DNA from: Terracidiphilus sp.
Lineage (GTDB): Bacteria > Acidobacteriota > Terriglobia > Terriglobales > Acidobacteriaceae
Reading direction: 5' to 3'
NCBI GenBank assembly: GCA_035263625.1
Contig: DATFRB010000033.1
Coordinates: 53,539-117,538 of the forward strand
DNA length: 64,000 nucleotides
Shown here: piece after piece, positions 27,322 to 49,481 of the stretch
How positions within the stretch are numbered: the first letter of the stretch is position 1
Layout of the letters: every line of letters begins with the position of its first letter
Made by a program: the position numbers and the translations under genes
The notes under the pieces: model-generated
Told to the model about the DNA's origin: nothing
Seen by the model: only the letters and a program-made list of their open reading frames with translations
The model's database searches: none

Positions 27322-27399
<78 letters not shown>

Positions 27400-27702: not shown

Positions 27703-30700
27703 CTACTGGACTACCAGGGTTACGGTGGCGGTGGGCGCCGGGTTGATGGCTGGGCTGCCGGTGCCGGTGACGCTGAAGGTGTAGGTTCCCTTGGTGGTGC
27801 CGGGATCGGCCTGGCCTCCGCCGCCTCCGCCTCCGCCGTTGCCGCCGCCTCCGCCGCTGCAGGCCGCGAGGCTGCCGAGAGCGGCGACCAGGATGAGCAG
27901 GCCGAGCATGTTACGCCAGCCGCAGCGCCGCGCGGGGATGCCGAGGAAGACGAGCAGGGCGAGGGCCGTTCCGCCGCCTGCTCCGAGCCAACCGGGAAGG
28001 CCATTACGCTGAAGGCTAGCGGACTTGGCGGGAGTGGTCGTCATCGTGATGGTGGCAGATCCCGTGGTTGCGGTGGGGCTAAATGAGACTGGAGAACCTG
28101 CGGTGACAGAACAACCGGGAGAATCGTTGGCGCCAGTTGGCCCGTTCATCAGCATGCAAGTGAGCGTGACGCTGCCCGTGTAGACGCCGTCGGACTTGAG
28201 GGTGACCTGGGCGGTGGTGTTGCTGCCCTGGCTCACGGTGACGCTCGACGAGGGTCCGGACATGGAGTACGGCGGGTTGATTACGAGGCTAATTGTATCG
28301 GCGCCCTTGATGTAGTTGCCGTCCCCGCCATACTGGGCGCTTACACTGACGGTGCCGAAGTTGTTGAAAGAGTTGGCTGGAATGTTGAAGGTGGCGGAAC
28401 CGGTGCTGCCGAGAGGGACCTGTGGGGAGTTGTAGTTTCCGGCCGTGAGGTTCACATTGCCAGTCGGTGTGGGTTTGTTGACAGGTCCGGTCACTTGGAC
28501 AGTCACGGGCACAATCTGGTCGGACGTGACGGTCGCAGTGGGCGTGCTGACGGTTATGCCCGGCGTAAGCCTCGTCTCGGTGACGGTCACGACAACCGTT
28601 CCGGATGCAGGGGCGTAGTTGTTGTCGCCGGTGTAGTTGGCGGTGAGGGTGACAGAGCCGGCCGAGAGGTCGCCGGCTGGAATGGTAAAGGTGCCCACGC
28701 CGCTGCTGTTGAGTGCTATGGCCGGAGTGTTGAGCCCGCCGCCCGAGAGGGTAACCGATCCGGTGGGAGTGCCGATGCTGGCCGATCCCGCGACCGTGAT
28801 GGTGATCTGGTCACTCTGCTGCGTAGTGATGCTTGCCGACGCCGGGCTGACGGTGACGGTGGCGATGCCTGAGCCGAAGCCGCTTCCGCCGGTCCATGCC
28901 TGGAGGAGGAGGTTGGCGTCGACGCTGCCGATGCCGGTGGCGAGGTCGTAGCCGACGGTGGTGTCGTAGCCGGTGAGGAAGTTGTTGTTGGGGGAGTAGT
29001 TCTGGCAGTTCGGGGTGCCCGGCAAACACGGCACGGAGTTGTTGCCGAGGGTGATGTCGTGGAATGAGGCTGAAGCGCCCGCGTTGTTGTTGTTGAACAT
29101 GTCGTAGAGGGTCTGGGGCACGCTGTTGCCGAGACGGTGGCCGACCTTCTGCTGCACGAGGGCGAGGATTCCGGCAAATGCCGGAGCGGCTGCCGATGTG
29201 CCGCCGTAGCCCTCGAAGTAGAAGCCGTACGAAGAGGAACTCTGGCTGCTGCAATCGTTATAGAGCGTGGGTTGTCCCTGCGGCTGGAAGCGGTCGCTGC
29301 AGACGAGCCATGTGGCGCCGTAGAAGCCGTTGCCGGCCATGAGCGAGACGTCGGGGACATCGCGGTGGCTGTCGTTGGGCACTCCGGGGCCGCGCTGCCA
29401 GGAGGGCTTGGCATAGCCGCTGTTGCATTTGATGGTGGGCTGCTGCTGCGCGTTGAACGTTGTGCTGTTGTTGGAGCACGTGCTCGCCCCGCCGGTGCCG
29501 CTGGTTATGCTGCTGCTGCCCTGCCTGTTGAGGTACGTCACGTTGCTGGCGAGCGGGCCTATGTTTGTCGTGGTGTCATTCCACGGGGTTTCGGGAATAT
29601 AGCCTTTGGCGGAGCGGTAACTATTGGAGGAACTGGCGTTGCCGTTGACGTAGGTTGAGAAACCGGGGCCGCTGGGGTTGATGAGACCGAAGAAGTCGGT
29701 GCCTCCGACCGCGATGTTGTAGGGGGTGGATGAAAAGCCGTTGACGGCGAGCCCATAGGAAGCGGTTGTCACGTTGTTCGGGTTGTCGCAACCCGCCGAG
29801 CCGCTGTCGCCGGTGGAGACAGTGACGGCGATTCCCGCGGCGGACGCCTGTTGCCACCAGCCATTGATCGTCGTGTTCTGGGTGTTGCTGAGGAAGTCTT
29901 CGCAAAGGCCGAAGCTGACGCTGAGGATATCGATTTTCGGGTCCGCGATCGCGTTTTCAATGGCGGTTTGCAGACCGCCCTGGCTGCTACCCGCAGTGTA
30001 GAAGTGGATGGTGGCGCCGGGCGCCATGCCACCGGCGATTTCGGTGTCGAGGTAGGCTTCATCGGAGTCGCCGCCGAGGACGGCGCCGTTGTTGGAGACG
30101 GTTGGAGCGGTCGTGTCGCCGTTGAGAAAGCGCTGGCGGTAGTTGACCACGACCTGGGGCGTGATGGCCGCGTCGCCCGCGATGCCGATGGTGACGCCTG
30201 TGCCGTTGTAGCTGACGCTGGAGGACCAGTTGCCGTTGTAGGAGTTGGGAGTGTCGTAGATGGTGGCCGCGTCTGAGGGAACCATGTAAAGGAACTGATT
30301 CGGAGCGGTGCCGACGGTGAATTCAGGCGATGGGCGCAAGTTTTCCGGGGCCTGCTCTACGAATTGCTGGAGCTGGGGGTCGTATTGACCGGAGGGGCCG
30401 CGGGCTAGGTGCGAGCGGGGCTGAAACGTGGTGAGGCCGGTGACGCCCATGACGACGGGGGCTAGTGCGGAGGGAATCTGCGGCTCCGTAACGTTTCCGA
30501 AGTACTGCTGGCCGTCGTGCTGGAAGGTGTGGATCGATGTGCCGAAGGCTGACTCGATCTGGCTGACGGAGCCGGTAAAGGCAATTGAGGTGCGTCCGCT
30601 CGAGACCTGGACGGCGGTGAAGCCGCGCGACTGGAGCCAGCCGGTGATGGCGGCGATGTCGGAGTCGGACGGGCCGTAGAGATGCGCGAACTGATCCGGA

Positions 30701-31008
30701 GTGAGCCAGTGGAGATAGTTCGGCGAGCTGGGATCGAGCTGCTCGGCCATGAACTTTTCGAGCGCGGCCTCCTGGGCCTGGGATCGGGTGAGGACGAGGC
30801 GCATGAATGGGATGACGGCGGACGGGGACGCGGCTCCGCGGTCGAATTCCGAGCGGTTCAGAGCAGACATGCTGCCGTTGAGCGTGACGCGGGCGGAGTC
30901 GTCGACCGAGGCGACGATGCGCGAGGCCGGGGCCTGGGCTTTGAGGGACGGAGCACAGAGGAGAGAAACCAAGGCAACGAGACAACAGATGGGATACAAA
31001 CGGCGCAT
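27703..31008 (-). CDS. S53 (sedolisin/kumamolisin) serine protease with pro-domain, Ig-like repeats and a C-terminal membrane segment
   Basis: Pro-kumamolisin domain (LEKFMAEQLDPSSPNYLHWLTP), catalytic EAYLD, GDSG and GGTSAAAP, and repeated Big_3-like A.Y.GD.NY modules. ATG at 31008. Confidence 0.9.
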   Translation of the reverse strand: MRRLYPICCLVALVSLLCAPSLKAQAPASRIVASVDDSARVTLNGSMSALNRSEFDRGAASPSAVIPFMRLVLTRSQAQEAALEKFMAEQLDPSSPNYLHWLTPDQFAHLYGPSDSDIAAITGWLQSRGFTAVQVSSGRTSIAFTGSVSQIESAFGTSIHTFQHDGQQYFGNVTEPQIPSALAPVVMGVTGLTTFQPRSHLARGPSGQYDPQLQQFVEQAPENLRPSPEFTVGTAPNQFLYMVPSDAATIYDTPNSYNGNWSSSVSYNGTGVTIGIAGDAAITPQVVVNYRQRFLNGDTTAPTVSNNGAVLGGDSDEAYLDTEIAGGMAPGATIHFYTAGSSQGGLQTAIENAIADPKIDILSVSFGLCEDFLSNTQNTTINGWWQQASAAGIAVTVSTGDSGSAGCDNPNNVTTASYGLAVNGFSSTPYNIAVGGTDFFGLINPSGPGFSTYVNGNASSSNSYRSAKGYIPETPWNDTTTNIGPLASNVTYLNRQGSSSITSGTGGASTCSNNSTTFNAQQQPTIKCNSGYAKPSWQRGPGVPNDSHRDVPDVSLMAGNGFYGATWLVCSDRFQPQGQPTLYNDCSSQSSSSYGFYFEGYGGTSAAAPAFAGILALVQQKVGHRLGNSVPQTLYDMFNNNNAGASASFHDITLGNNSVPCLPGTPNCQNYSPNNNFLTGYDTTVGYDLATGIGSVDANLLLQAWTGGSGFGSGIATVTVSPASASITTQQSDQITITVAGSASIGTPTGSVTLSGGGLNTPAIALNSSGVGTFTIPAGDLSAGSVTLTANYTGDNNYAPASGTVVVTVTETRLTPGITVSTPTATVTSDQIVPVTVQVTGPVNKPTPTGNVNLTAGNYNSPQVPLGSTGSATFNIPANSFNNFGTVSVSAQYGGDGNYIKGADTISLVINPPYSMSGPSSSVTVSQGSNTTAQVTLKSDGVYTGSVTLTCMLMNGPTGANDSPGCSVTAGSPVSFSPTATTGSATITMTTTPAKSASLQRNGLPGWLGAGGGTALALLVFLGIPARRCGWRNMLGLLILVAALGSLAACSGGGGGNGGGGGGGGQADPGTTKGTYTFSVTGTGSPAINPAPTATVTLVVQ

Positions 31009-31299
31009 ATGGCTTTCCTTTGCCTTTCGTGGGCGAGCCGGGGCGGGTGCTCGATGGTGCAATCCAAGGGAGCCAAGGAGATCCGTGGGCCCAGTATTTA
31101 ATTGAATCGGCTGACGGAGATGATATACGCGATTGTCAATAGAAGAGAATGAAAATCGGAATTCACGTTGGAACTGAAGTCACGGAACGAGAGCACGTTT
31201 GACCGGATTGGGAAAACCGATGGGCGTGGCGGTGCGCGAGGGGCGTGCGCGATGATAGGGATGCCGGGCCGGCGAGGGCGCGGCAGGATAGGACTGGAG

Positions 31300-36654: not shown

Positions 36655-39600
36655 TTAGACGGGTTGGACGGAGCCTTTACCTACTAACTCTTCCACGCGC
36701 TCGATCCAGCCTTTGTCGGCTGCCACAGACATCTGCTCGGGCTCGAGGATTACGGCGTATGCGCCCTTCTTTTCCAAGTGCAGCATGACTTTGCCAGGGC
36801 CGGGGGCTGCTTCTGCGGCGGAGCGGAGGCCGGTGAACATTTCTTCGGTGGCTCGCTCCAAGTTGATGCGGATGCGCACGCCGGAGGGGAGCTTGACCTG
36901 CACGTCGTCGAGGGCCTGGATGGAGTTGATGGAAAGCTTGGGAGCGGAGTCTTCTTCACCCATCAACGTGCCGCGGATGAGGACGGGCGCCTGGATCTTG
37001 AGCTGCTCCGCGAGGCGCTCGTATTCGCGCGCGAAGCAGATCACTTCCATTTTGCCGGTAGCGTCTTCAATGAAGCCCTGCGCGTAGAGCTTGCCTTCGC
37101 GCTTGCTTTTGCGCGCGGCGCCGGTGCCGTGGAGCATGCCCGCGACCTGGAGCTCGTCGGCGGGATCGGACTGGCGGCCCCAGGTGCGCTCGGGGGGCTT
37201 GCGCTCGAGGGCTTCGGAGATGGGGATAACGCCCGGAAGGTTGCGGAGCTTTTCGGCGTACTTGTCGAGCGGGTGGCCGGAGACGAAGAAGCCGAGGACT
37301 TCTTTCTCGTTGGCGAGTCGCTCGCTCTCCTCCCAATCTGCCGCGTGAGGCAGATCGTCGCTTCGGCGGCCGGGCGCGGGGGTTTCGTCGAAGAGGCCGA
37401 AGAGGCCGGTCTGGCCCTGGGCGGCGTCTTTCTGCGACTTCTGAGCCCGCTCCATCGCCTTGTCGACGGCAGCGAAGAGCTGGCCGCGTTTGCCGAGAGA
37501 GTCGAGCGCGCCGGCCTTGATCAACGACTCGATGACGCGCTTGTTCATCAGGCGCAGATCAACTTTCTCGCAGAACTGCCAGAAGCTGGCAAAGCGACCG
37601 CCGAGCTCGGTGCGCGCAGCGATGATGGATTCGATGGCGTTGCCGCCGACATTCTTTACTGCGGCGAGGCCGAAGCGGATGGCTTTGCCCTCCGGCGTGT
37701 CGTACGGCGTAAACTGCGCGCCGGAGATCTGCACGTCGGGAGGGAGGACCTGTATGTTCAGCTCCTTGCATTCGCCGATGTATTTCACGACATTTTCGGG
37801 CTTTGAGGTTTCAGCCGTGAGCAGGGCGGCCATGAACTCGACGGGATAGTGAGTCTTGAGATAGGCGGTCTGGTAGGCTACCCAGGCATAAGCGGCGGAG
37901 TGCGATTTATTGAAGCCGTAGCCGGAGAACTTCGCCATCTGCTCGAAGATCTCTTCGACGGGCGCCTTGGCGTAGCCCTGCGCCGCGGCGCCGCTGGTGA
38001 AGCGCTCGCGCTGCTTCGCCATGGCGGCGGGATCTTTCTTTCCCATGGCGCGGCGGAGCAGGTCGGCCTCGCCGAGCGAGTAACTGGCGAGCACGTTGGC
38101 GATGCGCATGACCTGTTCCTGGTAGACGATGACGCCGAGCGAGTCCCTGAGGATCTCCTCGAGCGGCGGGAGCAGGTATTCCACTTTTTTGCGCTTCCAC
38201 TTGCGCTCGATGAAGTCGTCGATCATGTCCATGGGGCCGGGGCGGAAGAGCGCGTTCAACTGCGTCAGTTCTTCGACGGTGTCGGGCTTGTAGCGGCGGA
38301 GAATGTCGCGCATGCCGCCGGACTCAAACTGGAAGACGCCCGAAGTGAGCGCGGTGTGAAACACCCGCTTGAATGTCTCCGGATCATCCATGGGAATCAT
38401 TTCGATGTCGAGCTTTTCGCCGCGGGTCTGTTCGATGAGCTTGACCGCGTTGTCGATGACGGTGAGCGTGGCCAGGCCGAGGAAGTCCATCTTCAGCAGG
38501 CCCATTTTTTCGACAGCCTTCATGTCGTAAGCGGTGACGATTTCGTCGTTCTTGGTGCGGTTGAGGGGAACGAGCTCCGTGAGCGGGCGGGGCGCGATGA
38601 CCACAGCGGATGCGTGGACGCCGGCGCCGCGGGAGAGGCCTTCAAGTTTTTTCGCGGTGTCGATCAGTTCCCGGATCTGCTTGTCGCTCTCATACACCTT
38701 GGCCAGCTCGGGCGACTCTTCGAGCGCCTTGTCCAGAGTCATGCCCACGGTGGCGGGGACGAGCTTGGCGATGCGGGCCACGTCGGTGAAGGGCATGTCC
38801 ATGGCGCGGCCGCAGTCCTTGATGGAGGCCTTGGCGGCCATGGTGTTGAAGGTGATGATCTGGGCGACCTGCTCGCGGCCGTACTTGCGGGTGACGTAGT
38901 CGATGACTTCGCCGCGGCGGTTCATGCAGAAGTCGACGTCGACGTCGGGCATGGTGACGCGTTCGGGATTGAGGAAGCGCTCGAAGAGGAGCACGTTCTG
39001 CATGGGATCGATGTTGGTGATCTCCATTGCGTAGGCGACGAGCGACCCGGTGGCGGAACCGCGGCCGGGGCCGACTGGGATGCCGTGATCGCGAGCGTAC
39101 TTGATGAAGTCCCAGACGATGAGGAAGTAGCCGGAGTACTTCATCTGCTTGATGATGCCTATCTCGTATGAGAGGCGCGATTCGTATTCCTCGGGCGTGG
39201 ACCGGCGCACGCCGCGCAACTCGAGCTGACGGACGGATGTGTCGAGGCGCTTCTTGAGGCCCTCGCGGCAGACTTCTTCGAAGTAGCTGTCGATGGTGTG
39301 TCCTGCGGGGACGGCGAACTCGGGGAAGGGATTGTCGACGGGGTTGAGCTTGAAGTAGCAGCGCTCGGCGATCTCCATGGTGCGGGAGAGGAGGGCGGGC
39401 GAGTCGGGGAAGAGGCGCGCCATTTCGTCGGCGCTCTTGACGTAGAACTGATCGGAGTCGAACTTGAAGCGGTCAGCGTCGTGGATCTTGGCACCGGTCT
39501 GGACGCAGAGCATGACGTCGTGCGCGTGGGAGTCTTCGCCGCAGAGGTAGTGGGAGTCGTTGGTGGCGATGAGCGGGATTTCGAGCTCGCGCTCGAGGCG

Positions 39601-40176
39601 GAAGAGGTCGTTCTGGATCTTGCGCTCTTCGGCGAGGCCCTGGTCCTGGATTTCGAGGAAGAAGTTGTTGCGGCCGAAGATGTCCTGGTACTCGAGGGCG
39701 ACGGCTTTGGCGCGGTCGTAGTTGCCGGCGACGAGTTCTTCGCAGAGCTCGCCGGAGAGGCAGCCGGAGGTTCCGATCAAGCCCTTGGCGTGTTCGGCGA
39801 GAAAGCGCTTGGAGACGCGGGGCTTGCGGTAGAAGCCGTGGAGAGAGGCCTCGGAAGTGATGCGGATCAGGTTGCGGTAGCCTTCTTCGTTTTCGGCGAG
39901 GACGAGGAGATGGTTGTACTCGTTCTTAGTGTCGACCGGGGTGCCGCAGTGGTCCTCGGATTTGGAGACGTAGAGCTCGCAGCCGAGGATGGGTCGGATG
40001 CCTTTTTCCTTGGCGGCGTTGAAGAAGTGGACGGCGCCGTAGATGTTGCCGTGGTCGGTCATGGCGACGGACTTCTGGCCGAGGGAGGCGACGCGGTCGA
40101 CGAGTTTGTGGAGGTCGCATGCGCCGTCGAGGAGGGAGTATTCGGTGTGGAGATGGAGGTGGGTGAATTCGGGCAT
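36655..40176 (-). CDS. dnaE: DNA polymerase III alpha subunit
   Basis: PHP domain HLHLHTEYSLLDG, GPGRGSATGS, PDVDVDF, GLLKMDFLGL, FNKSHSAAY and a C-terminal OB fold. No intein seen. Confidence 0.98.
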   Translation of the reverse strand: MPEFTHLHLHTEYSLLDGACDLHKLVDRVASLGQKSVAMTDHGNIYGAVHFFNAAKEKGIRPILGCELYVSKSEDHCGTPVDTKNEYNHLLVLAENEEGYRNLIRITSEASLHGFYRKPRVSKRFLAEHAKGLIGTSGCLSGELCEELVAGNYDRAKAVALEYQDIFGRNNFFLEIQDQGLAEERKIQNDLFRLERELEIPLIATNDSHYLCGEDSHAHDVMLCVQTGAKIHDADRFKFDSDQFYVKSADEMARLFPDSPALLSRTMEIAERCYFKLNPVDNPFPEFAVPAGHTIDSYFEEVCREGLKKRLDTSVRQLELRGVRRSTPEEYESRLSYEIGIIKQMKYSGYFLIVWDFIKYARDHGIPVGPGRGSATGSLVAYAMEITNIDPMQNVLLFERFLNPERVTMPDVDVDFCMNRRGEVIDYVTRKYGREQVAQIITFNTMAAKASIKDCGRAMDMPFTDVARIAKLVPATVGMTLDKALEESPELAKVYESDKQIRELIDTAKKLEGLSRGAGVHASAVVIAPRPLTELVPLNRTKNDEIVTAYDMKAVEKMGLLKMDFLGLATLTVIDNAVKLIEQTRGEKLDIEMIPMDDPETFKRVFHTALTSGVFQFESGGMRDILRRYKPDTVEELTQLNALFRPGPMDMIDDFIERKWKRKKVEYLLPPLEEILRDSLGVIVYQEQVMRIANVLASYSLGEADLLRRAMGKKDPAAMAKQRERFTSGAAAQGYAKAPVEEIFEQMAKFSGYGFNKSHSAAYAWVAYQTAYLKTHYPVEFMAALLTAETSKPENVVKYIGECKELNIQVLPPDVQISGAQFTPYDTPEGKAIRFGLAAVKNVGGNAIESIIAARTELGGRFASFWQFCEKVDLRLMNKRVIESLIKAGALDSLGKRGQLFAAVDKAMERAQKSQKDAAQGQTGLFGLFDETPAPGRRSDDLPHAADWEESERLANEKEVLGFFVSGHPLDKYAEKLRNLPGVIPISEALERKPPERTWGRQSDPADELQVAGMLHGTGAARKSKREGKLYAQGFIEDATGKMEVICFAREYERLAEQLKIQAPVLIRGTLMGEEDSAPKLSINSIQALDDVQVKLPSGVRIRINLERATEEMFTGLRSAAEAAPGPGKVMLHLEKKGAYAVILEPEQMSVAADKGWIERVEELVGKGSVQPV

Positions 40177-40462
40177 GGTCTAGGTAAATTTTAGTCGCGG
40201 ATCGGGTGCGATGATCCGAAGGTTGGAACAGCGGGGAACGCATTTCTGAGGAAAACCAGGGAGAAATGGTTTTCTCGCGGGCAGGAATTTGCATCTGAAC
40301 GATGCACTGAGGCTGCAGGAGTTAGGGCGTCCTCTTCCCGGAAAATGAGATTTCTCGCATTACTCCGGATATGCCTGACGCTTTTCCGTGATTGCCTGGG
40401 GCGGGAATTTCGGGCATTGTGGGAGCAGGGCCAGGTTTCTTGTTGAGCGGGGTGCTGGGGAA

Positions 40463-41683
40463 TTGAAGACAAAGGGCTATCTATATACAGGTGTGGTGGT
40501 GGGTGTGCTGGCCGGGATGGCAGCGGCGGCGTATTCGCAGGAGACACCGGACGCGGCGGGCGAGGCGCAAAGAGTGCATCAGGCGCTGCCTGCGATGCTG
40601 ATGCCGGCGCAGACGCAGGGGCCGGCGGCTCCTGCAACACCGGCACAGGCACCGAAGCTGCCGGTGATCGCGATTCCGCAGACGGTTCCGGGGGGCGCAA
40701 CGGGCGCGAGCGCTCAGGCGACTGGGACTGTGCAGACAGCCGGTCCGGTAATGCAGGCGGCGGATGCGGCTAAGCGAGCGACGGCGGCGACGAGTGTGGA
40801 TGCACCAGCGATCGAGGTGCCTTCTTCGGCGTTGAGCGCTTCGGCGCGGACGTTGATGGAGTTCAAGGCGTCGGATGCGAAGTTCAAGGTCGATGACCTG
40901 ATGGATATTTTGCGCGACAAGCGGCACGAAGGGTGGGTGCTTGCCGCGTATCCGGACCCGAAGACTGCGCAGCCATTGATTGGGGCGGGGTTCAGCCTGG
41001 ATTTGCCTGAGCGCGAGCACGTGCAGCGGGACCCGTTGAATCCTCACCTGTTCCTGGAGCCCTCGTCGGCGGATCTGTGGCTGGCGGCGGGGCTGGATCC
41101 GGCGAAGCTGCAGCGGATTCTGGAGGAGTTTTACGCACGGCGGGACGAGTGGAGCAGGAGGACGTTCCGGCGGCAGATTTACAAGCTGGATCCGCAGATT
41201 ACTGACGATGAGGCGGATGCGCTGCTGCGGATCGGGATCGTGCAGTCGATTGACAACGCGAAGGCGTATTGCCGGAATTTTGACCGGCTGAGCGCGAGCC
41301 AGCAGATGGCGATGACGCAGCTTGTATACCAGATGGGCGTAAACCTCGAGGAGTTTTCGAGCTTTCTGACGCTGCTCAACCAGGACAACGGGAACGGGGC
41401 GGACACGGCGGCGCTTGCCAACGCGGACGCGGAGTACTGGCGGAACGTGCAGTTGAGCCTGGTGCACAGCCAGTGGGCGCGGCTCTACCGGGCGCGGGCC
41501 ACGGCGGTGATTGCAATGCTGGATCCGCAGTACGGGGACGACCCGGCGGGGGCGGAGCATTCGATCGGGGTGATCCTGCATCCCGCGCGGAGGCATGCGA
41601 GCCATGCGACGGTGCGGACGGCGGGATACACGCGGCACCGGGCTGCCGCTAAGAAGCGGGCAGCGCGGGCACGGAAGGAATAA
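40463..41683 (+). CDS. Secreted T4-lysozyme-fold (GH24-like) protein with an Ala/Pro/Gln-rich linker
   Basis: [43 protein letters not shown] and [15 protein letters not shown] align by eye to T4 lysozyme landmarks. TTG start with a signal peptide. Confidence 0.75.
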   Translation: [406 protein letters not shown]

Positions 41684-41787
41684 GCTCCCTGCATCTCTCC
41701 AGTTGAATGATGTTTGTGACGCCTACGGCCCAGTGCGTCGGCCACGTTCGCGGATAACGCCGCGACCTGTTCTATACTTGGCGCGCG

Positions 41788-43041
41788 ATGAAAGCTCATA
41801 AGTTCACTTCTTTTTTCTCTCTCTGCTTCCCTGCCCTTCTCGTTCTTCTGTTGGCGGCAGTTTCCATTCAAATTCAGGCGCTGGCCCAGGCGCAGCGCGG
41901 GTTTGTGCATGCGCGCGGGGCGGTCCTGGTGGACGGCCAGGGGAAGCCGCTGATGCTGCGCGGAATCAACCTGGGAAACTGGTTTGAGCCCGAAGGCTAC
42001 ATGTTTCACTTCGACGGCGGCCCGCAGTCGCCGCGGGAGATCGAGGACCTGACAACGGAGCTGATCGGGCCGGAGAAGGCTGCGGCGTTCTGGAAGCAGT
42101 GGCGGGAGACGTACATCACCGAGGCCGACATCGACCGGCTGAAGGCGATGGGGTTCAACTCGGTTCGGGTGCCGATCCACTGGAAGTTCTTTGACGGCGA
42201 TGACGCCGAAGGGTTCCGGCTGATGGACCGGCTGGTGGCGTGGGCGCGGAAGGATGGAATCTACGTCATTATCGACCTACACTGCGCTCCGGGCGGACAG
42301 ACGGGCACGAACATCGACGACAGCTACGGATATCCGTGGCTGTATTCGGACGTGAATGAGCAGACCCGAACCTACAATGTGTGGTGGCGGATTGCGAATC
42401 ACTATGAAAACGAGCCGATAGTGCTGGGGTACGACCTGCTGAACGAGCCGATTCCGCACTTCCCGCAACTGCAGCGGTACAACAAGGACCTGGAGCCGTT
42501 GTACCGGCGAATCGGCGCGGCGATTCGCGATGCGGATCGCAATCACGTGCTGATCCTGGGCGGCGCGCAGTGGGATTCGAACTTCAAGGTATTCGGCCCG
42601 CCGTTCGATAAGAACACGATGTACACGTTCCACAAATACTGGACGGCGACGGACGCGAGCGTGATCCAGGAGTATCTGGACTACCGCGACAAGTATCATG
42701 CGCCGATCTGGCTGGGCGAGTCGGGCGAGAACAAGGACGAGTGGATTGCGGCATTTGTAAAGACGCTCGAGGACAACCACGTGGGCTGGTGCTTCTGGCC
42801 GTACAAAAAGATGGATGCTACTTCGAGCGTGGTAACTTTTGACCGGCCGGAGCACTGGGATCAGGTGGTGAAGCTGGCGGCGATGGCGCCGGGCACGGGG
42901 AACGCAGAGAAGAGGATCGCGGCGCGGCCGTCGCCCGAAGAGGCGCAGGCGATCTTCGACGATTTGCTGAAGAAGGCGCAGTTCGGGAGCGAGCGGGTGA
43001 ATGAGGGGTATGTGAAGGCGCTGGGGATGAAGGCGAAGTAA
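41788..43041 (+). CDS. GH5 family glycoside hydrolase, exported
   Basis: Motifs RGINLGNW, GFNSVRVP, IIDLH, YDLLNEP (acid/base), YTFHKY, WLGESGE (nucleophile) and GWCFWPYK. Confidence 0.92.
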   Translation: MKAHKFTSFFSLCFPALLVLLLAAVSIQIQALAQAQRGFVHARGAVLVDGQGKPLMLRGINLGNWFEPEGYMFHFDGGPQSPREIEDLTTELIGPEKAAAFWKQWRETYITEADIDRLKAMGFNSVRVPIHWKFFDGDDAEGFRLMDRLVAWARKDGIYVIIDLHCAPGGQTGTNIDDSYGYPWLYSDVNEQTRTYNVWWRIANHYENEPIVLGYDLLNEPIPHFPQLQRYNKDLEPLYRRIGAAIRDADRNHVLILGGAQWDSNFKVFGPPFDKNTMYTFHKYWTATDASVIQEYLDYRDKYHAPIWLGESGENKDEWIAAFVKTLEDNHVGWCFWPYKKMDATSSVVTFDRPEHWDQVVKLAAMAPGTGNAEKRIAARPSPEEAQAIFDDLLKKAQFGSERVNEGYVKALGMKAK

Positions 43042-43213
43042 TCGGTCACTCCACCCGCGTTCATGAATGGGGATCCAGACAGATCATCTTTAATTGACAG
43101 TCCTTGACTGACGGTTGAGGGTGTGGGAAGCTTTTGTCCTCACCTGTCCCGCGGCAACAGGGCCGACCCAGGTTCCATTGGGCTCAAGCCAATATCCCCC
43201 GAGGCGAAATCCG

Positions 43214-44257
43214 ATGGACGATCTTGCATGGGCCGTCGTGCCTCCGTTCGATCCACCTGAAGTTGAAGCGTGGGTTGCAAATTCGATCTCCCAGGCGATG
43301 CTTCTGGAGCCTCACCGCCGCGCCTACCTGTGGGCGAACTGGCTGCTGAAGAAGGCGTCGGCGGATCAACTTTCGGTAGTGAATTTAGCCGTACACGACG
43401 CCTTCAAGGGGTCGTACGAAATCAGTGACATTACGGCGGGTTTCATTCCGGTGGCGCCGCAATCGAAGCAGGACTCCTACCTTGCCTTGATGACGCGCCA
43501 GGAGCGCCGGACTCACTACACGGATACGAGTGGGCTCTTCTGGACGTTCGGGCTAGTGGTTGGGGTACAGGAGAGTCCTCCGGGGCAGCTACTGACTCCA
43601 ACGCCCGGAATCAGCCAATTGCGGGACTATGACGGATTCCCGGTGATGTGCGAGCAACGGGTCGATGCCGATCCTCATGAGAAGGCCACGGTCTTCCACG
43701 CGCCGCCGCATGTGACTGGAGCGACTTCGACATGCTTCGTGCGGCCGGCCGCAGGGAAACGCTATTACAGCAGGCAGTGGTCGGAGGGGGTTCTTATTGC
43801 CCGCCATGTGCTGCGCAACCAGGCCTACGCCGGCGCGCAGGTGTCTTTGGAGCCGAACGGGACGCGGCAGGTTGTGGACATCGACGAGAGTGCGACGACG
43901 ATCGACGCGGCGATCCTCGACGCAGGGATTGGCTCGATAGCGGCGGGGACGCGCCAGGTCGGCGTGCATCCAGCGATCGCGCCGGGAATTGACGTGAACG
44001 TTTCGGGCGCGCGAACGCAATTCTCCGCGAAGGTCCTGCGCGTGATGGACGATCCATTTTGCGGGAATATGTTGGCGCACCGGGGAGTTCTGGACGGTCA
44101 CGGCATTGCAGGCGACAGCGGTGCGCTAGTGACCGAGCAACTCACCGGCCAGGCCGTCGGCCTGTACATCGGCATGATCCCGGGCACGCCTGCTTTGGGA
44201 TTGGTTCAACTGATGCGGCAGGTGACAACCTATTTTGAGGTTGAACTCTATCAATGA
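43214..44257 (+). CDS. Cytoplasmic trypsin-fold serine protease with an uncharacterised N-terminal domain
   Basis: Catalytic triad motifs LIARH, IDAAIL and GDSG in the correct order. No signal peptide. Start set at the ATG at 43214. Confidence 0.75.
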   Translation: MDDLAWAVVPPFDPPEVEAWVANSISQAMLLEPHRRAYLWANWLLKKASADQLSVVNLAVHDAFKGSYEISDITAGFIPVAPQSKQDSYLALMTRQERRTHYTDTSGLFWTFGLVVGVQESPPGQLLTPTPGISQLRDYDGFPVMCEQRVDADPHEKATVFHAPPHVTGATSTCFVRPAAGKRYYSRQWSEGVLIARHVLRNQAYAGAQVSLEPNGTRQVVDIDESATTIDAAILDAGIGSIAAGTRQVGVHPAIAPGIDVNVSGARTQFSAKVLRVMDDPFCGNMLAHRGVLDGHGIAGDSGALVTEQLTGQAVGLYIGMIPGTPALGLVQLMRQVTTYFEVELYQ

Positions 44258-44269
44258 AGGAGGGACGCC

Positions 44270-44623
44270 TTGAACGGTTCTGACAAGTTGAAGATCATTG
44301 TGCCGGTGCGCCGCGCGGAGGTTCAGGCACCCATTCAGCGGGACCGGCAAGGCGGGGAACAACACAGCGCCGAGATCATCTCGCTGAACCTGAGCAGGTA
44401 CGAAGCGACCCCGGTCGAGACGGCATCGTTCCTCGACAAGCTGATGGGGCCGATCGACAAGGCGATGCGCGCGATCGAGCGATCGTTCAAGGATTTCAGC
44501 CTGCACGAGATTAAGATCTCGCTTGCCGTTACCGCCGAAGGGGACATCGGGATCGCCAGCGCCGGCGTTGAATCATCGATTGAAGTGACCTTTCAGCGAA
44601 GGGAGCCGGTTGTACCGGCTTAG
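44270..44623 (+). CDS. Small Pepco/Trypco-like (peptidase co-occurring) protein
   Basis: AGGAGG RBS and TTG start. The C-terminal pattern FSLHEIKISLAVTAEGDIGIASAGVESSIEVTFQR resembles the Pepco/Trypco1 beta hairpin as recalled. Confidence 0.65.
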   Translation: MNGSDKLKIIVPVRRAEVQAPIQRDRQGGEQHSAEIISLNLSRYEATPVETASFLDKLMGPIDKAMRAIERSFKDFSLHEIKISLAVTAEGDIGIASAGVESSIEVTFQRREPVVPA

Positions 44624-44671
44624 CCATCGGCGAAGGCGCCTGCAACGGCGGTCTATACTCGTTGCAAGCCT

Positions 44672-46003
44672 ATGAGAGCCCGACTCCTGATTTCCACGCT
44701 GCTCGTTTGCCTTCCCGCGCTTGTTGGCGCACAGACTCCTGAACAGAAATCCACGGACAATTCCTCACAGACGATGAAGCAGAAACTTTCTCCGCAGGCG
44801 GTGCACGATTCCGCCATTGTGATCGACACGCATGCTGATACTACGCAGCGGTTTGTCGATGAGAACTTTGACATGAGCGACCCGCTGAAGGGCGGGAATT
44901 TGAATTTGGAGTCCGCGAAGAAGGGAAACCTGGGCGCGGAGTTCTTTTCGATCTGGGTGGAGCCGAATTTGTACAAGGGGCACTACGCGAAGCGGACGCT
45001 GGTGCTGATTGACGCGGTGAGGCAGCAGGTGGCGAGGCATCCGGGGCAGATGATGCTGGCGGTGAGCCCGGAGGACATCGAGAAGGCGCACCGCGAGCAC
45101 AAGCTGGCGGCGCTGATGGGGATCGAGGGCGGGCACTCGATCGAGGATTCGCTGGCGCTGCTGAGGGATTATTACGCGCTGGGCGTTCGGTACATGACGC
45201 TGACGTGGTCGAACTCGAACGGGTGGGCGGACAGCTCGGGCGACGACAAGGACGAATCGGTGCCGCACACGAAGGACGGGCTGAGCGAGTTCGGCAAGGA
45301 CGTGGTGTACGAGATGAACCGGCTGGGGATGATGGTGGACATCTCGCACGTCTCGGACAAGACGTTCTTCTACACGACGCGCATCACGCGAGCACCCCTG
45401 ATCGCGTCGCACTCGTCGGCGCGGGCGCTCGACGATGCACCGCGCAACATGACGGACAACATGCTGCTGGCTGTGGCGCGGTCTGGCGGGCCGGATTCGA
45501 AGGGCGGCGTGGTGCAGGTGAATTACTACTCGGCGTTTATCTCGCCGGCGTACCGCGATGCGCAGAGGGCACAGAAGGCCGAAGTGGACAAGGCCGTTCA
45601 GGCGCTGAAGGACAAGGCCAAGGCCGAAGGGCACGAGGTGAACTACGAGGAGATTTCGAAGGTGCAACGCCAGTATGCGGATCGGATTCCGCGGCCGCCG
45701 CTGTCGATGCTGATCGACCACATCGACCACATCGCGAAGGTTGCGGGCGTGGATCATGTCGGGCTGGGGTCGGACTTCGATGGCGTGGACGGGCAGACGC
45801 CGGAGGGAATGGACTCGGCTGCGGATTTGCCGAAGATTACGGCGGCGCTGATGGCGCGGGGCTACTCGGCGGAAGATTGCCGGAAGATCCTGGGCGGGAA
45901 TTTGCTGCGGGTGTTCCGCGAGGTGCAGGAAGTGAGCAAGCAGTTGCAGTCGGAGGAACGGCCTCGGATTACGGAGAAGCAGCCGTTTGATAAGCCGCAG
46001 TAG
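44672..46003 (+). CDS. M19 membrane dipeptidase, exported
   Basis: Motifs VIDTHADT, MGIEGGH, RYMTLTW, MMVDISH, IASHS, HIDHI and VGLGSDFDG. Confidence 0.93.
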   Translation: MRARLLISTLLVCLPALVGAQTPEQKSTDNSSQTMKQKLSPQAVHDSAIVIDTHADTTQRFVDENFDMSDPLKGGNLNLESAKKGNLGAEFFSIWVEPNLYKGHYAKRTLVLIDAVRQQVARHPGQMMLAVSPEDIEKAHREHKLAALMGIEGGHSIEDSLALLRDYYALGVRYMTLTWSNSNGWADSSGDDKDESVPHTKDGLSEFGKDVVYEMNRLGMMVDISHVSDKTFFYTTRITRAPLIASHSSARALDDAPRNMTDNMLLAVARSGGPDSKGGVVQVNYYSAFISPAYRDAQRAQKAEVDKAVQALKDKAKAEGHEVNYEEISKVQRQYADRIPRPPLSMLIDHIDHIAKVAGVDHVGLGSDFDGVDGQTPEGMDSAADLPKITAALMARGYSAEDCRKILGGNLLRVFREVQEVSKQLQSEERPRITEKQPFDKPQ

Positions 46004-46005
46004 CA

Positions 46006-46050
46006 GGGGCAAAGGGACATTGGGACACAGGGACATAGGGACAAAGGGAG
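46006..46050 (+). repeat. Five tandem 8-bp units (a.agggac) giving six G-tracts
   Basis: gggg-c-aaagggac-attgggac-acagggac-atagggac-aaagggag. Confidence 0.85.
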
Positions 46051-46051
46051 A

Positions 46052-47545
46052 GTGCGACGCGTGAAGTTTCTACTTATTGCGATGGCGGCATGTGCACTCT
46101 CAGTCGCTGCCCAAGACCGGAAGGATGAGCCCATTCGGCTCGATCCGGGCAATCCGCACTACTTCCTCTATAACGGCAAGACGATTGCGCTGGTCACGAG
46201 CGGTGAGCACTACGGCTCGGTGATCAATGCGGACTTCGACTATCACATTTATCTGAAGACGCTCGAGGCGGACGGGCTGAACTACACGCGGATCTTCGGC
46301 GGGAGCACCGTGGAGGTGCCGGGGATTTCATTCGGCATCAAGCGCAACACGCTGGCTCCGGCGGCCGAGCGGCTGATTTTGCCTTGGGCGCGGAGCGCTG
46401 AGCCGGGGTACGCGGGCGGAGGAAACAAGTTCGACCTGGAGAAGTGGGACCCGGAATACTTCAGGCGGTTGCGCGATTTCCTGGGCGAGGCGCAAAGACG
46501 CGGCGTGGTGGTGGAGATTTCGCTGTTCTCGTCGCAGTACACAGAATCGGAGTGGAAGGCGAGCCCGTTCAACGACGCGAACAACGTGAACCAGACCGAC
46601 GTGACCGACTTCAAGAAGGTGAACACGCCGGATAACGGGAATGTGCTCGCGCTGCAGGAGCGGTATGTGCGGAAGCTGGTGGATGAGGCGAATGCATTTC
46701 CGAACGTGATCTTCGAGATACAGAACGAGCCGTGGTCGGATCATCCGGTGCTGACGGATGTGGTGAACCCTTATCTGCGGCCGCCGGCGCGGGATATGTA
46801 TCCGAACTCGGTTGAGGTGGCGGACGAGGCGTCGATTGCATGGCAGACGCGCGTGGCGGAGTGGATCACGAGCGAGGAGGCAAAGCTCAAAAACAAGCAC
46901 CTGATTGCGCAGTGCTATTCGAATTTCCGGTCGCCGGTGCGGGCGCTCATCGCGGGCGTGAGCGTGGTGAATTTTCACTATGCGTACCCGGAGGCCGTGG
47001 CGTGGAACTATGGGCTCGGCAACGCGATCGGGTACGACGAGACGGGGTTCCTCGGGCGCAGCGATGACGTATACCGGCGGCAGGCGTGGAACTTCATGCT
47101 TTCGGGCGGGAGCACGTTCGACGCGCTGGATTACTCGTTTTCGACTCAGCATCCGGATGGGACGGATGCGGAGCCGAATGGGCCGGGCGGCGGAAGCGTG
47201 GCACTGCGGAAGCAATTGGGGATTCTGCAAAAGTTTCTGACGGCGCTGCCGTTGGCCGAGATGACGCCGGATCAGACCGCGGTGCAGCACGCGGAGGGAG
47301 TGGTGACGCATGCGATGTCGAGCAAGCGCGGCGTGTATGCGGTTTATCTGGATGGCAGCGGCCCGAGCCGGTTGACTCTGCGGCTGTCGAAGGGCAGGTA
47401 TCGCGGGGAGTGGGTGAACACGGTGAGCGGCGAGACGACAGCGGTGGCGGAGTTTGCGAGCGATGGTGGCGAGGGCCTGATTATATCCCCGGCGTTTGAG
47501 AATGGGATCGCGCTGCGGGTTAGCAGGGTCGGGAGTTCACAGTAA
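46052..47545 (+). CDS. Exported clan-A-like glycoside hydrolase (GH5-like TIM barrel) with a C-terminal beta domain
   Basis: Signal peptide, GLNYTRIF, FEIQNEP, VNFHYA and GYDETG. The C-terminal YAVYL..LSKGRYRGEWVNT module resembles the putative collagen-binding domain. Confidence 0.7.
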   Translation: MRRVKFLLIAMAACALSVAAQDRKDEPIRLDPGNPHYFLYNGKTIALVTSGEHYGSVINADFDYHIYLKTLEADGLNYTRIFGGSTVEVPGISFGIKRNTLAPAAERLILPWARSAEPGYAGGGNKFDLEKWDPEYFRRLRDFLGEAQRRGVVVEISLFSSQYTESEWKASPFNDANNVNQTDVTDFKKVNTPDNGNVLALQERYVRKLVDEANAFPNVIFEIQNEPWSDHPVLTDVVNPYLRPPARDMYPNSVEVADEASIAWQTRVAEWITSEEAKLKNKHLIAQCYSNFRSPVRALIAGVSVVNFHYAYPEAVAWNYGLGNAIGYDETGFLGRSDDVYRRQAWNFMLSGGSTFDALDYSFSTQHPDGTDAEPNGPGGGSVALRKQLGILQKFLTALPLAEMTPDQTAVQHAEGVVTHAMSSKRGVYAVYLDGSGPSRLTLRLSKGRYRGEWVNTVSGETTAVAEFASDGGEGLIISPAFENGIALRVSRVGSSQ

Positions 47546-47611
47546 TTCCAGGCAAGAAAGCGAGATTGCGGCTTCGGGCCCAACGATACGCGCGATCGGG
47601 GCTTCCTTGCA

Positions 47612-47700
47612 GCGTCCCTACGGGACTACGTGGCACCTTCCTGGAATTCCCTTTCCCCACGCTAAAGCGCGGGGCTAACAAACCTTGCGCCTCCGGCGCG
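47612..47700. repeat. REP-like triple-hairpin element
   Basis: gtccc-tac-gggac, cccc-acgctaaagcgc-gggg-cta and gcgcc-tcc-ggcgc. Confidence 0.6.
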
Positions 47701-47852
47701 CTTGCCAGCGCAGTTCCCATGCCGCTCTCAATTGAGTACCCAGGAGTGCTGATACGACGCCCTATGCGGTAATCTCGAAGTTTCTGTGCGCGGCGTCTTA
47801 TACTGAGCTTCACGGTTTGCCTCCTTTCCAATTCAATATTTTTGGAGATTGA

Positions 47853-49481
47853 TTGATGCGACGTTCCGCACGTTTGTTTGCAGCTTTGCTTGCTCTCGCG
47901 TTTGTGGTTCCTTCGATTGCGCGAAGCGATGACGATAAAACGAAGACCGACAACAAGCCTGCGGAGAAGCCGGCGGCGCAGGCGGACGTGACGACGCAGG
48001 GCTCGGTGGATGCGGGCGGGCAGCACATCCTATACAACGCGATTGCGGGAACTATCACGGTGGGCGCGACGGATGTGCAGGACGCGCAGTTGGGGCTCGA
48101 TGGGAAGCCGGAGCCGGGAAGCCAGCTTGCGCTGGACGCGCCGAAGGAAGAGAAGGACGCGGCGCCGACGGCGCGGATGTCGTTCTTTGCGTATTTTAAG
48201 AAGGACGTCAAAGCAGAGGACCGGCCGATCACGTTTTTCTACAACGGAGGGCCGGGAAGCTCGACGGTGTGGCTGCACATGGGGTCGCTGGGGCCGAAGC
48301 ACGTGGTGACGTCAACCGACGAGCACTTGCCGGCGGCTCCGTACAAGATGGTGGACAACGCGAACTCGCTGCTTGACGTGAGCGACATTGTGTTCGTGGA
48401 CATGCCAGGGACGGGATTCGGGCGGCTGATGGGCAAGGACCCGGAGAAGGCGTTCTGGGGCGTGGATGAGGACGCGAATGCGTTTGCGCGGTTCATTGCG
48501 CGGTTCATCACCAAGTACAGCCGGTGGAATTCGCCGAAGTACATCTTCGGAGAGAGCTACGGGACGACGCGGTCGGCGGTGCTGGCGGACGTGCTGGAGA
48601 ACAACAAGAGCATCGACCTGAACGGCGTGATCCTGCTGTCGCAGATTTTCAACTTCACAACGGATATCGACGGGCCGCAGGGGAACCCGGGCGTGGATCT
48701 GCCGTACGTGCTGGCGCTGCCGACATACGCTGCGACGGCGTGGTACCACAAGAAGCTGCCCACACAGCCGGCGGCGCTGGAACCGTTCCTGAAGGAAGTG
48801 GAGGAATTTGCCATGGGCGCGTATACGCACGCGCTGGCGCAGGGGACGGATCTTTCGACGGAGGAGAAGCAGGCCACGGCGGAGAAGCTGCACCAGTACA
48901 CCGGACTGCCGACGGCGTACATTCTGAAGGCCGACCTGCGCGTGAATGGCGGCGAGTTCTCGAAGAGCCTGCAGGATGATGAGAACCTGACGACTGGGCG
49001 ACTGGATACGCGGTTCTCTGGGCCGACGATCGATCCGCTGAGCCAGTCTGCGGACTACGATCCGCAAAGCTCGGCGATTTCGTCGGCGTATGTGTCGCTG
49101 TTCAACGATTACGTGCGCAAGGAACTGAAGTACGGAGAGGGGCAGACGTATCTGCCGGAGGCGCTGTTCGGGTCGAGCCAGTGGGACATGGTGCACCACG
49201 GGAACCCGGTGAGCCTGAACGTGGCGCCGGACCTGGCCGAGGCGATGAAGACGAATCCGCGGCTGAAGGTGATGGTGAACGGCGGGTACTACGATTTGGC
49301 CACGCCGTTTTTCGCCGCGCAGTACGAGGAGAAGCACCTGCCGATTCCGAAGTCGCTGGCGAAGAACATCGAGTATGACTGGTACGAGTCGGGGCACATG
49401 GTATACGTGCGCGACGAGAGCCTGAAGCAGCTGCACGACCGCGTGGCTGCGTTTATTACGAAGACGGACGCGGGGAAGTGA
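47853..49481 (+). CDS. S10 family serine carboxypeptidase, exported
   Basis: Motifs FFYNGGPGSS, GTGF, GESYGTTR, NGGYYDLATP and YESGHM. Confidence 0.93.
   Translation: MMRRSARLFAALLALAFVVPSIARSDDDKTKTDNKPAEKPAAQADVTTQGSVDAGGQHILYNAIAGTITVGATDVQDAQLGLDGKPEPGSQLALDAPKEEKDAAPTARMSFFAYFKKDVKAEDRPITFFYNGGPGSSTVWLHMGSLGPKHVVTSTDEHLPAAPYKMVDNANSLLDVSDIVFVDMPGTGFGRLMGKDPEKAFWGVDEDANAFARFIARFITKYSRWNSPKYIFGESYGTTRSAVLADVLENNKSIDLNGVILLSQIFNFTTDIDGPQGNPGVDLPYVLALPTYAATAWYHKKLPTQPAALEPFLKEVEEFAMGAYTHALAQGTDLSTEEKQATAEKLHQYTGLPTAYILKADLRVNGGEFSKSLQDDENLTTGRLDTRFSGPTIDPLSQSADYDPQSSAISSAYVSLFNDYVRKELKYGEGQTYLPEALFGSSQWDMVHHGNPVSLNVAPDLAEAMKTNPRLKVMVNGGYYDLATPFFAAQYEEKHLPIPKSLAKNIEYDWYESGHMVYVRDESLKQLHDRVAAFITKTDAGK

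Follow-up and report, generated by a model that had tools for sequence, protein, structure and literature searches.

A chromosomal gene of the Acidobacteriaceae encodes a predicted exported protein with the T4 lysozyme fold and a candidate role in cell wall turnover

A stretch of 64,000 nt from Terracidiphilus sp. (contig DATFRB010000033.1 of assembly GCA_035263625.1), here called the window, contains a gene for a lysozyme-like protein of 406 amino acids (aa). The reading that we prefer, with a probability of about 0.5, is that this is a vertically inherited chromosomal gene of the Acidobacteriaceae, encoding an exported peptidoglycan glycosidase of family GH24 that serves the turnover of the producer's own wall, and not a prophage endolysin. 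The parts of this reading differ in strength. That the protein has the two-lobe GH24 fold, is exported, and is not a phage protein appears very highly probable, and we consider it likely that it is enzymatically active. A housekeeping role in the turnover or remodelling of the self wall in the periplasm is proposed tentatively, with odds slightly below even.

The sequence identity to phage T4 lysozyme (T4L) is only ~20%, and a PDB search with the single sequence yielded weak matches to T4L (E about 0.2). An alignment of 16 family sequences was matched to both lobes of T4L by hhalign (E=2e-5), and the profile of a diverse set of 29 family sequences retrieved T4L from the PDB with E=1.5e-17, in an alignment that spans the catalytic hairpin as well as the C-lobe. 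PF00959 (Phage_lysozyme) was the sole Pfam domain found, with 24.4 bits against a gathering cutoff of 22.3 (E=4.1e-5), and it covers the C-lobe only; it was also matched by 24 of 25 homologues. The single match in PHROGs was phrog_7, "endolysin", and NCBIfam gave no meaningful match. A first AlphaFold model, based on the 16 close homologues, had a mean predicted local distance difference test (pLDDT) value of 70.9 and values <50 at the catalytic hairpin. It is superseded by a second model from the diverse 29-sequence alignment (pLDDT 86.6, predicted template modelling score 0.83), which is poor only in the last ~30 residues and in one loop. With both models, the top Foldseek matches in the PDB were T4 lysozyme and T4L fusions, with a probability of 1.0 and template modelling scores of 0.60-0.66 when normalised to T4L; Lyz of phage P1 was a weak match at rank 47. 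A library of viral structures returned phage lysozymes and endolysins. The T4-lysozyme fold had been proposed in the original prediction, which was made from the sequence alone, on the basis of four motif pairings with T4L. All four pairings were reproduced in the HMMER and hhalign alignments, and the structural model and the family profile bear out the fold.

In GH24 enzymes of the viral type, Glu11 serves as general acid and Asp20 as general base, while the water is positioned by Thr26 (PMC2976769, Table 2; PMC8334348). Mapping by hhalign, MAFFT, and the PDB profile places E156 at the position of Glu11, and hhalign and MAFFT place D165 at that of Asp20, with eight residues between the two, as in T4L. 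L172 occupies the position of Thr26, so the earlier assignment of these three positions is confirmed. Y289-Q290, W338, and R345 are aligned with T4L F104-Q105, Trp138, and Arg145, respectively, and invariant; the hydrophobic-Asn/Gln motif for substrate binding, to which F104-Q105 belongs, is defined in PMC8334348. E156 and D165 were invariant in all sequences aligned, and G174, Q290, W338, R345, and A346 are invariant as well. Only the Glu, the Asp, and one Gly of the hairpin are N-lobe residues that remain invariant out to T4L itself. Thus, the sequence threshold, the two-lobe fold, the Glu, the Asp, and the binding motifs of viral-type GH24 are all present, and Thr26 is the sole feature missing among those tested.

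Among 299 relatives that contain the motif, the Thr26 position is occupied by Leu in 291, by Thr in seven, and by Val in one. The triad is thus altered at one position only, and the Leu is a fixed family trait, not a decay mutation. The description of the triad as changed therefore holds for the Thr26 position but not for the Glu and the Asp. The Leu is almost always paired with IGAG, while T4L has IGIG. More generally, residues 26 and 29 (T4L numbering) co-vary: rare exceptions aside, IGAG goes with Leu and IG[IVMC]G with Thr. This may be a structural compensation, or it may simply stem from common ancestry.

The longest ORF over the region starts with a GTG and encodes 431 aa (40388-41683, forward strand). 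However, the M-K at the N-termini of the homologues lines up with the TTG at 40463. The TTG is the supported start because the homologue N-termini align there and because a promoter-like element (see below) is situated downstream of the GTG, in agreement with the start chosen originally. The database gene call (P0001, 431 aa) begins at the GTG at 40388 and is 25 codons too long at its N-terminus; the same over-extension affects several homologues called from GTG or TTG starts, and the extension from 40388 to 40462 overlaps the conserved promoter-like element. The GC content of the gene region is ~0.62, equal to that of the rest of the window, and there is one copy of the gene in the window and one per locus elsewhere.

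The domain is embedded in a layout of several parts (Table 1), most of which had been anticipated. The N-terminus has an MK/K-rich n-region, 12-19 hydrophobic residues, and A-x-[GS] followed by Q, and the conservation of this pattern across homologues supports the heuristic reading as a Sec-type signal. No lipobox was found in the signal region. The following linker is rich in Ala (27%), Pro (13%), Thr (10%), and Gln (9%); it is present as had been described, but its length is ~100 aa and not ~120 aa. It is variable in length and sequence and ~40 aa longer here than in most relatives. For the region after IGAG an insertion of 40-50 aa had been proposed, in good agreement with the net 41-43 aa (~42 aa) found with hhalign, where residues 177-243 lie opposite T4L residues 31-57. 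This region is modelled as an ordered loop and three helices with pLDDT values of 80-98, contains the invariant polar residues D180, R184, H186, Q188, D190, N193, E199, S201, and S202, and is common to distant relatives in the MAFFT alignment. The C-terminal tail is indeed very basic: its 34 residues include 11 K/R, four H, and one acidic residue, and its isoelectric point (pI) of 12 contrasts with the pI of 5.1 of the acidic folded domain. The tail was found in 120 of 120 homologues, the last 35 residues of which contain on average 12.1 K/R and 0.7 D/E, and the family consensus ends with A-R-x-R-K-[D/E/N].

When the 200 nt preceding the start codons were aligned, a conserved block of non-coding sequence became apparent. 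In 37 upstream regions, the conserved columns are ATTAC, ~28 nt, TTG(C), N13, TTT, N4, and CATnGT, i.e. a −35-like TTGCnn and a −10-like CATnGT are separated by a 17-nt spacer. The copy in front of the gene is the only exact match in the 64 kb of the window. At 52 of 83 distinct loci, the gene is preceded by TTG-N13-TTT-N4-CAnnGT, compared with four occurrences elsewhere in 2.35 Mb, and 37 of the 83 have the full arrangement, ATTAC-N26-29-TTG-N13-TTT-N4-CATnGT. An nhmmer profile gave one match in each listed locus (53 listed), on the strand of the gene and immediately 5′ of its coding sequence, also in other gene contexts. Rfam has no match near the gene and RNAalifold gave zero consensus pairs for the block, so it is read as DNA motifs, and a structured 5′ leader or riboswitch was rejected. 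A generic sigma-70 scan called no promoter, neither at the block nor elsewhere. We infer that it is a gene-specific promoter or operator that stays with the gene through chromosomal rearrangements, with ATTAC as a possible activator or UP-type site.

The family is large but narrowly distributed. A word-indexed protein search returned more than 2,156 homologues, the best 120 of which have 55-75% identity. The named ones nearly all belong to the Acidobacteriaceae, i.e. Terracidiphilus, Occallatibacter riparius, strain AB60, and Silvibacterium. Two proteins from metagenome-assembled genomes are labelled otherwise, as Dongiaceae (on a 1.1-kb contig) and Binatia, which are possible binning errors. 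A scan of the GTDB species genomes gave 271 coding matches, and the best 80 of the 271 are all from Acidobacteriaceae or Terriglobales. An exhaustive HMMER search over 1.84 billion cluster representatives yielded no more than 159 clusters at E<=1e-3, and many of these are fragments. By these sequence searches, the family is compact and isolated from the mainstream of phage GH24 enzymes. Existing labels are "GH24 family phage-related lysozyme" for many members (JGI) and "lysozyme family protein" for one (NCBI). The insertion is also present in rare distant relatives (25-40% identity), but their signals are of the RRxFL type for twin-arginine translocation (Tat), suggesting that export is a family trait, and some of these relatives keep Thr at position 26. 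A query with one of them, P0156, yielded only two proteins, showing that this branch is rare.

No relative was found in IMG/VR or by tblastn over 50,697 GenBank phage records, and the viral structures gave only generic lysozyme-fold matches; a phage origin traceable through extant phage relatives was therefore rejected. Every context examined was chromosomal and devoid of phage genes, so the view of the original prediction that this is a host gene and not prophage-borne stands. Its term "domesticated" implies an origin from phage, which is suggested by family membership.

Selection was estimated with the Nei-Gojobori method for nine orthologues, and the same genome pairs were used for neighbouring genes. 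The ratios of non-synonymous to synonymous substitution rates (omega) are 0.09-0.25 for the domain and 0.06-0.24 for dnaE and the GH5, M19, and S10 genes; because synonymous divergence is saturated (dS >=1), all omega values are rough. The domain is clearly under purifying selection, like its housekeeping neighbours. The values for the linker, 0.3-0.57, indicate relaxed constraint.

In the window and its nearest relatives, the gene order is dnaE (on the opposite strand), the lysozyme-like gene, and the genes for GH5, an M19 dipeptidase, (DUF6298), and an S10 carboxypeptidase. The divergence from dnaE, with a spacer of 286 bp, had been noted originally, and the conservation of this synteny across the lineage had been suggested as a check. 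It is kept in 17 of 84 loci, all in the nearest clade, and is not family-wide; accordingly, dnaE linkage was discarded as a functional clue. GH5 linkage as a pointer to a non-peptidoglycan substrate was also discarded, because the GH5 gene is missing in Terracidiphilus gabretensis and in all other contexts. A terminator-like hairpin between the gene and the GH5 gene (41748-41765) is weak and not above chance. Clustering of flanking ORFs revealed at least four further recurrent contexts, i.e. at least five in all, in which the flanking genes are usually on the opposite strand. Examples are DUF6580, the lysozyme-like gene, and YdjM, with ligA nearby; a SpoIIE-type phosphatase, the lysozyme-like gene, and a GNAT acetyltransferase; and an MFS transporter followed by the lysozyme-like gene. 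Across the contexts, the neighbours include dnaE, ligA, DedA/VTT, YdjM, MFS, and GNAT genes.

The absence of holin, spanin, and phage genes from the vicinity had been an argument of the original prediction, and no phage genes were found within ~10 kb on either side of the gene in the window. Pfam revealed no phage function among the neighbours across contexts, and no secretion-system genes were found among them. No neighbour gene family is common to all contexts, leaving no candidate for an immunity or partner gene, and a conserved adjacent small gene that might encode an immunity protein was also not found. Three distant relatives have other neighbours: P0156 adjoins genes for a polysaccharide deacetylase and a NUDIX protein, P0233 lies inside an Opp-like peptide ABC transporter cluster, and P0328 directly follows an Asp/Glu racemase gene. 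These neighbours, each a single case, hint at cell-wall metabolism.

Table 1. Positions in the window of the lysozyme-like gene, its parts, and adjacent features
Feature	Position	Strand	Remarks
Coding sequence of the lysozyme-like protein	40463-41683	+	406 aa, TTG start, stop codon included; ORF listing, homologue alignment, >2,156 homologues
Predicted Sec signal peptide (residues 1-25, then Q)	40463-40537	+	Heuristic pattern conserved in homologues
Ala/Pro/Thr/Gln low-complexity linker (residues 26-125)	40538-40837	+	Composition, variable length, relaxed constraint
GH24/T4-lysozyme-fold domain (residues 126-372)	40838-41578	+	AlphaFold, Foldseek, PF00959, PHROG 7, PDB profile search
Catalytic beta-hairpin motif (residues 154-176)	40922-40990	+	E156 40928-40930, D165 40955-40957, L172 40976-40978; invariant in 25/25 sequences
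N-lobe region with net ~42-aa insertion (residues 177-243)	40991-41191	+	Gap opposite T4L in hhalign; AlphaFold
C-lobe core matched by Pfam Phage_lysozyme (residues 244-315)	41192-41407	+	Includes Y289-Q290; PF00959, hhalign
Polycationic C-terminal tail, probably disordered (residues 373-406)	41579-41680	+	Composition, homologues, pLDDT <55
ATTAC box	40359-40363	+	~28 nt before the −35-like hexamer; columns 28-32 (near-)invariant, 37 upstream regions, different contexts
Promoter-like element	40392-40420	+	TTGCCT 40392-40397 (−35-like), 17-nt spacer with TTT, CATTGT 40415-40420 (−10-like)
dnaE (DNA polymerase III alpha), divergent neighbour	36655-40176	−	Pfam
GH5 gene with signal peptide, downstream, co-oriented	41788-43041	+	Follows the lysozyme-like gene only in the nearest clade

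The preferred reading implies the following mode of action. The gene would be transcribed from its own promoter-like element, and the protein would pass the inner membrane via Sec and be cleaved after A-x-S, leaving an N-terminal Gln. A flexible Ala/Pro-rich linker would then precede the two-lobed domain, in which E156 (general acid) and D165 (general base) may cleave the bond between N-acetylmuramic acid (MurNAc) and N-acetylglucosamine, while Q290, W338, and R345 would hold the substrate like Q105, W138, and R145 of T4L. In place of Thr26, another residue may position the water, e.g. the invariant T168 or a polar residue of the insertion. Hydrolysis by a muramidase is favoured over lytic transglycosylation, because the general base Asp is retained. 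The polycationic tail on the acidic domain would probably tether the enzyme to anionic polymers of the envelope.

An active enzyme is favoured because the acid, base, and binding residues are invariant, the cleft is modelled with confidence, the domain is under purifying selection, and export signals are present. The original prediction had offered a host-adopted muramidase or transglycosylase for wall remodelling or interbacterial attack, or an inactive peptidoglycan binder. The invariant residues and purifying selection speak for an active enzyme among these. Single copy number, slow evolution, the lack of an immunity gene, and the stand-alone position with a dedicated promoter favour turnover of the self wall.

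Several observations weigh against this view. Both the signal peptide and the site of its cleavage were assigned heuristically. Thr26 has no match in nearly every family member; since this residue has been described as pivotal for catalysis by viral-type GH24 enzymes (PMC2976769), activity could be lost or altered. The polycationic tail would equally be expected of an antibacterial lysozyme that penetrates outer membranes, and the run of five predicted secreted hydrolases in the clade of the window fits extracellular foraging just as well. In addition, none of the RNA sequencing runs contains the sequence, and it is present only in four "soil metagenome" runs, the DNA type of which is guessed.

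The alternative that survives best, which we nevertheless regard as unlikely, is that of a secreted antibacterial or foraging lysozyme. Its tail would bind lipopolysaccharide and carry the enzyme across the outer membrane of other bacteria, or the enzyme would digest necromass peptidoglycan beside the GH5, M19, DUF6298, and S10 proteins. Cationic C-termini help some endolysins against Gram-negative bacteria, as well as the engineered "Artilysins", to cross the outer membrane, and a tail with 11-13 K/R in the last 35 residues on an acidic domain, present in all 120 homologues, would suit this purpose. Furthermore, the gene heads a co-oriented array of five genes for proteins with signal-peptide-like N-termini in the clade of the window (40463-49481, forward strand), i.e. 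the lysozyme-like protein, GH5, M19 dipeptidase, a DUF6298-like protein, and S10 carboxypeptidase. This run could be a secreted-hydrolase cluster, for necromass or for cell-wall turnover, or a coincidence. The array is, however, clade-local, and at most loci the gene is found alone between unrelated genes on the opposite strand. An interbacterial effector is not indicated by the data: there is no shared neighbour family and no Pfam domain beyond PF00959, and neither a conserved immunity gene nor a secretion-system marker is nearby, although the enzyme would pass the periplasm of its producer. The slow, housekeeping-like evolution is unlike that of typical arms-race effectors, and the tail is not amphipathic, consisting almost only of R, K, H, and A.

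A second group of alternatives concerns the chemistry. In a rather improbable extension, the Leu together with the polar insertion would have rewired the GH24 reaction, either by a new water-positioning residue or towards a transglycosylase or transglycosidase, and the phage-derived protein would be a core cleaver of glycan strands in the envelope of Acidobacteriaceae, under its own promoter, conserved throughout the lineage, with a targeting or autoinhibitory tail. Quite unlikely, too, is the more specific proposal that the change from Thr26 to Leu excludes the catalytic water and has turned the enzyme into a lytic transglycosylase, with 1,6-anhydroMurNAc products, or into a transglycosidase. 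The Leu that 291 of 299 relatives carry in place of the water-positioning residue is compatible with this, and the lambda-type GH24 lysozyme acts as a lytic transglycosylase. Changes at Thr26 can switch the mechanism of T4L, the T26H variant being a retaining transglycosidase and T26E forming a trapped covalent adduct (PMC5606550), and the active site of the lambda type is configured differently, with no general base (PMC2976769, Table 2). Against this, the equivalent of Asp20, with which a transglycosylase could dispense, is unchanged in even the most divergent relatives. In GH23 enzymes, hydrolysis proceeds with no residue to position the water (PMC2976769, Table 2). Moreover, Thr is retained in a few relatives that carry the N-lobe insertion (P0156, P0235), and Leu and Thr thus do not mark sharply separate functional classes.

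A catalytically dead peptidoglycan binder or scaffold, with the lysozyme cleft kept for binding only, appears very unlikely. The loss of one member of the Glu-Asp-Thr triad, the resemblance of the long linker and basic tail to tethering modules, and the low confidence of the first AlphaFold run at the catalytic hairpin would be in accordance with it. However, the hairpin was modelled confidently with the more diverse alignment, and E156, D165, and R345 are invariant family-wide, including relatives with 25-30% identity. Binding-only derivatives of glycosidases usually lose the general acid, and in T4L, Arg145 pairs with Glu11.

The reading as an endolysin, perhaps of the signal-arrest-release (SAR) type, left over from a decayed prophage is effectively refuted: GH24/PF00959 is mainly a phage family, PHROG 7 is the sole phage-family match, the N-terminal hydrophobic stretch is rich in Gly and Ala, and P1 Lyz is among the weak structural matches, but about 85 loci contain no holin, spanin, integrase, or structural gene, no viral homologues were found, the gene is under purifying selection, its gene-specific promoter is conserved across genera, and, unlike in SAR endolysins, a linker of 60-100 aa parts the hydrophobic segment from the catalytic domain (~130 residues from the catalytic Glu here; the HEGW motif has a median position of ~100 in homologues).

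Several other features of the window were recorded. Two genes are inserted between the GH5 and M19 peptidase genes (43115-44623, forward strand). The first encodes 380 aa with a trypsin-like GDSGALV motif and has no Pfam or PHROG match; the second encodes 117 aa and matches Pepco (PF24393, E=2e-7) and Trypco1 (PF19493, E=3e-5), both described as "trypsin co-occurring". With the 380-aa ORF as the only tblastn query of the two, no counterpart was found in the 17 syntenic loci, which gives the pair the appearance of a window-specific island, possibly a conflict or defence module. The sole Rfam matches at gathering level in the window are a SAM riboswitch (RF00162, 18633-18745, reverse strand, 80.5 bits) and a tRNA gene (27325-27398, reverse strand). 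A peptidase of 1,119 aa of the sedolisin/kumamolisin type (S53), with a pro-kumamolisin activation domain and Big_3_5 Ig-like repeats, is encoded at 27703-31062 on the reverse strand. The GC skew of the forward strand is positive in all 2-kb bins (0.008 to 0.31, with a peak at 28-36 kb), and the cumulative skew rises monotonically from 1 to 64000.

The comparison with known systems underlines the peculiarity of the family. With T4 lysozyme (gpe), the protein shares the two-lobe fold, the signature of the beta-hairpin, and the equivalents of Glu11, Asp20, Phe or Tyr104-Gln105, Trp138, and Arg145. It differs by the Leu in place of Thr26, the helical insertion of ~42 aa within its N-lobe, and additional helices at the N- and C-termini, and also has the signal peptide, the ~100-aa linker, and the polycationic tail on an acidic domain (pI 5.1). 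The Acidobacteriaceae gene is chromosomal and does not belong to a lysis cassette.

TtsA of Salmonella Typhi and SagA of Brucella abortus are host-adopted, chromosomally encoded T4L-like two-domain muramidases with a Glu/Asp/Thr-type loop, which the cell uses on its own peptidoglycan (PMC8334348). They resemble the Acidobacteriaceae gene in being chromosomal bacterial genes of the T4L-like muramidase type. TtsA serves the export of typhoid toxin and SagA a type IV secretion system, each adjoining the system that it serves, and SagA has a dedicated inhibitor, PhiA (PMC8334348). Neither linkage to such a system nor a conserved partner gene was found for the Acidobacteriaceae gene. TtsA and SagA also keep the Thr and are devoid of signal peptide, linker, and basic tail, and they were not among the listed top 50 Foldseek or top 60 sequence matches.

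SAR endolysins such as P1 Lyz and R of phage 21 are GH24 enzymes that are exported by Sec via an N-terminal hydrophobic segment. In these enzymes the segment belongs to the catalytic domain, the activation of which it governs, and the genes lie in phage lysis cassettes, whereas a long linker and no phage context are found here. Endolysins of the LysAB2 type and Artilysins combine a lysozyme domain with a short, highly cationic peptide; they are phage-derived or engineered and act on target cells from outside. The tail of the present family, in contrast, is encoded within a conserved cellular gene. Lambda lysozyme R belongs to the same CAZy family, relies on a single Glu as general acid, and likewise has no T4-type Thr (PMC2976769). 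The lambda type has no Asp as general base, however, and its signature motif is different, whereas the Acidobacteriaceae proteins match the T4 (viral) type in alignments and retain the Asp. The family is set apart by the fixed Leu, the N-lobe insertion, the layout of signal, linker, and cationic tail, the lineage-wide vertical inheritance, and the travelling promoter.

Membership in GH24 was already known from automated annotation, and the proteins form an uncharacterised subfamily of a very well-known enzyme family; full-text literature searches retrieved no paper on this family. New here is the promoter-like block that travels with the gene through all contexts. The family would be a clear example of a lysozyme fold from phage that has been fixed as a lineage-wide cellular gene with promoter, export signal, spacer, and cationic tail. 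Since mutation of Thr26 in T4L is known to switch the catalytic mechanism, the family also represents a natural experiment at this position. If active, the protein would be a natural GH24 template without the water-positioning Thr and with a built-in polycationic peptide, of interest for the mechanism of lysozymes and for the engineering of endolysins. Acidobacteriaceae are among the most abundant soil bacteria, and the biology of their cell envelope is almost unstudied; if the protein is a housekeeping autolysin, it would offer a handle on wall turnover in a phylum that is hard to culture.

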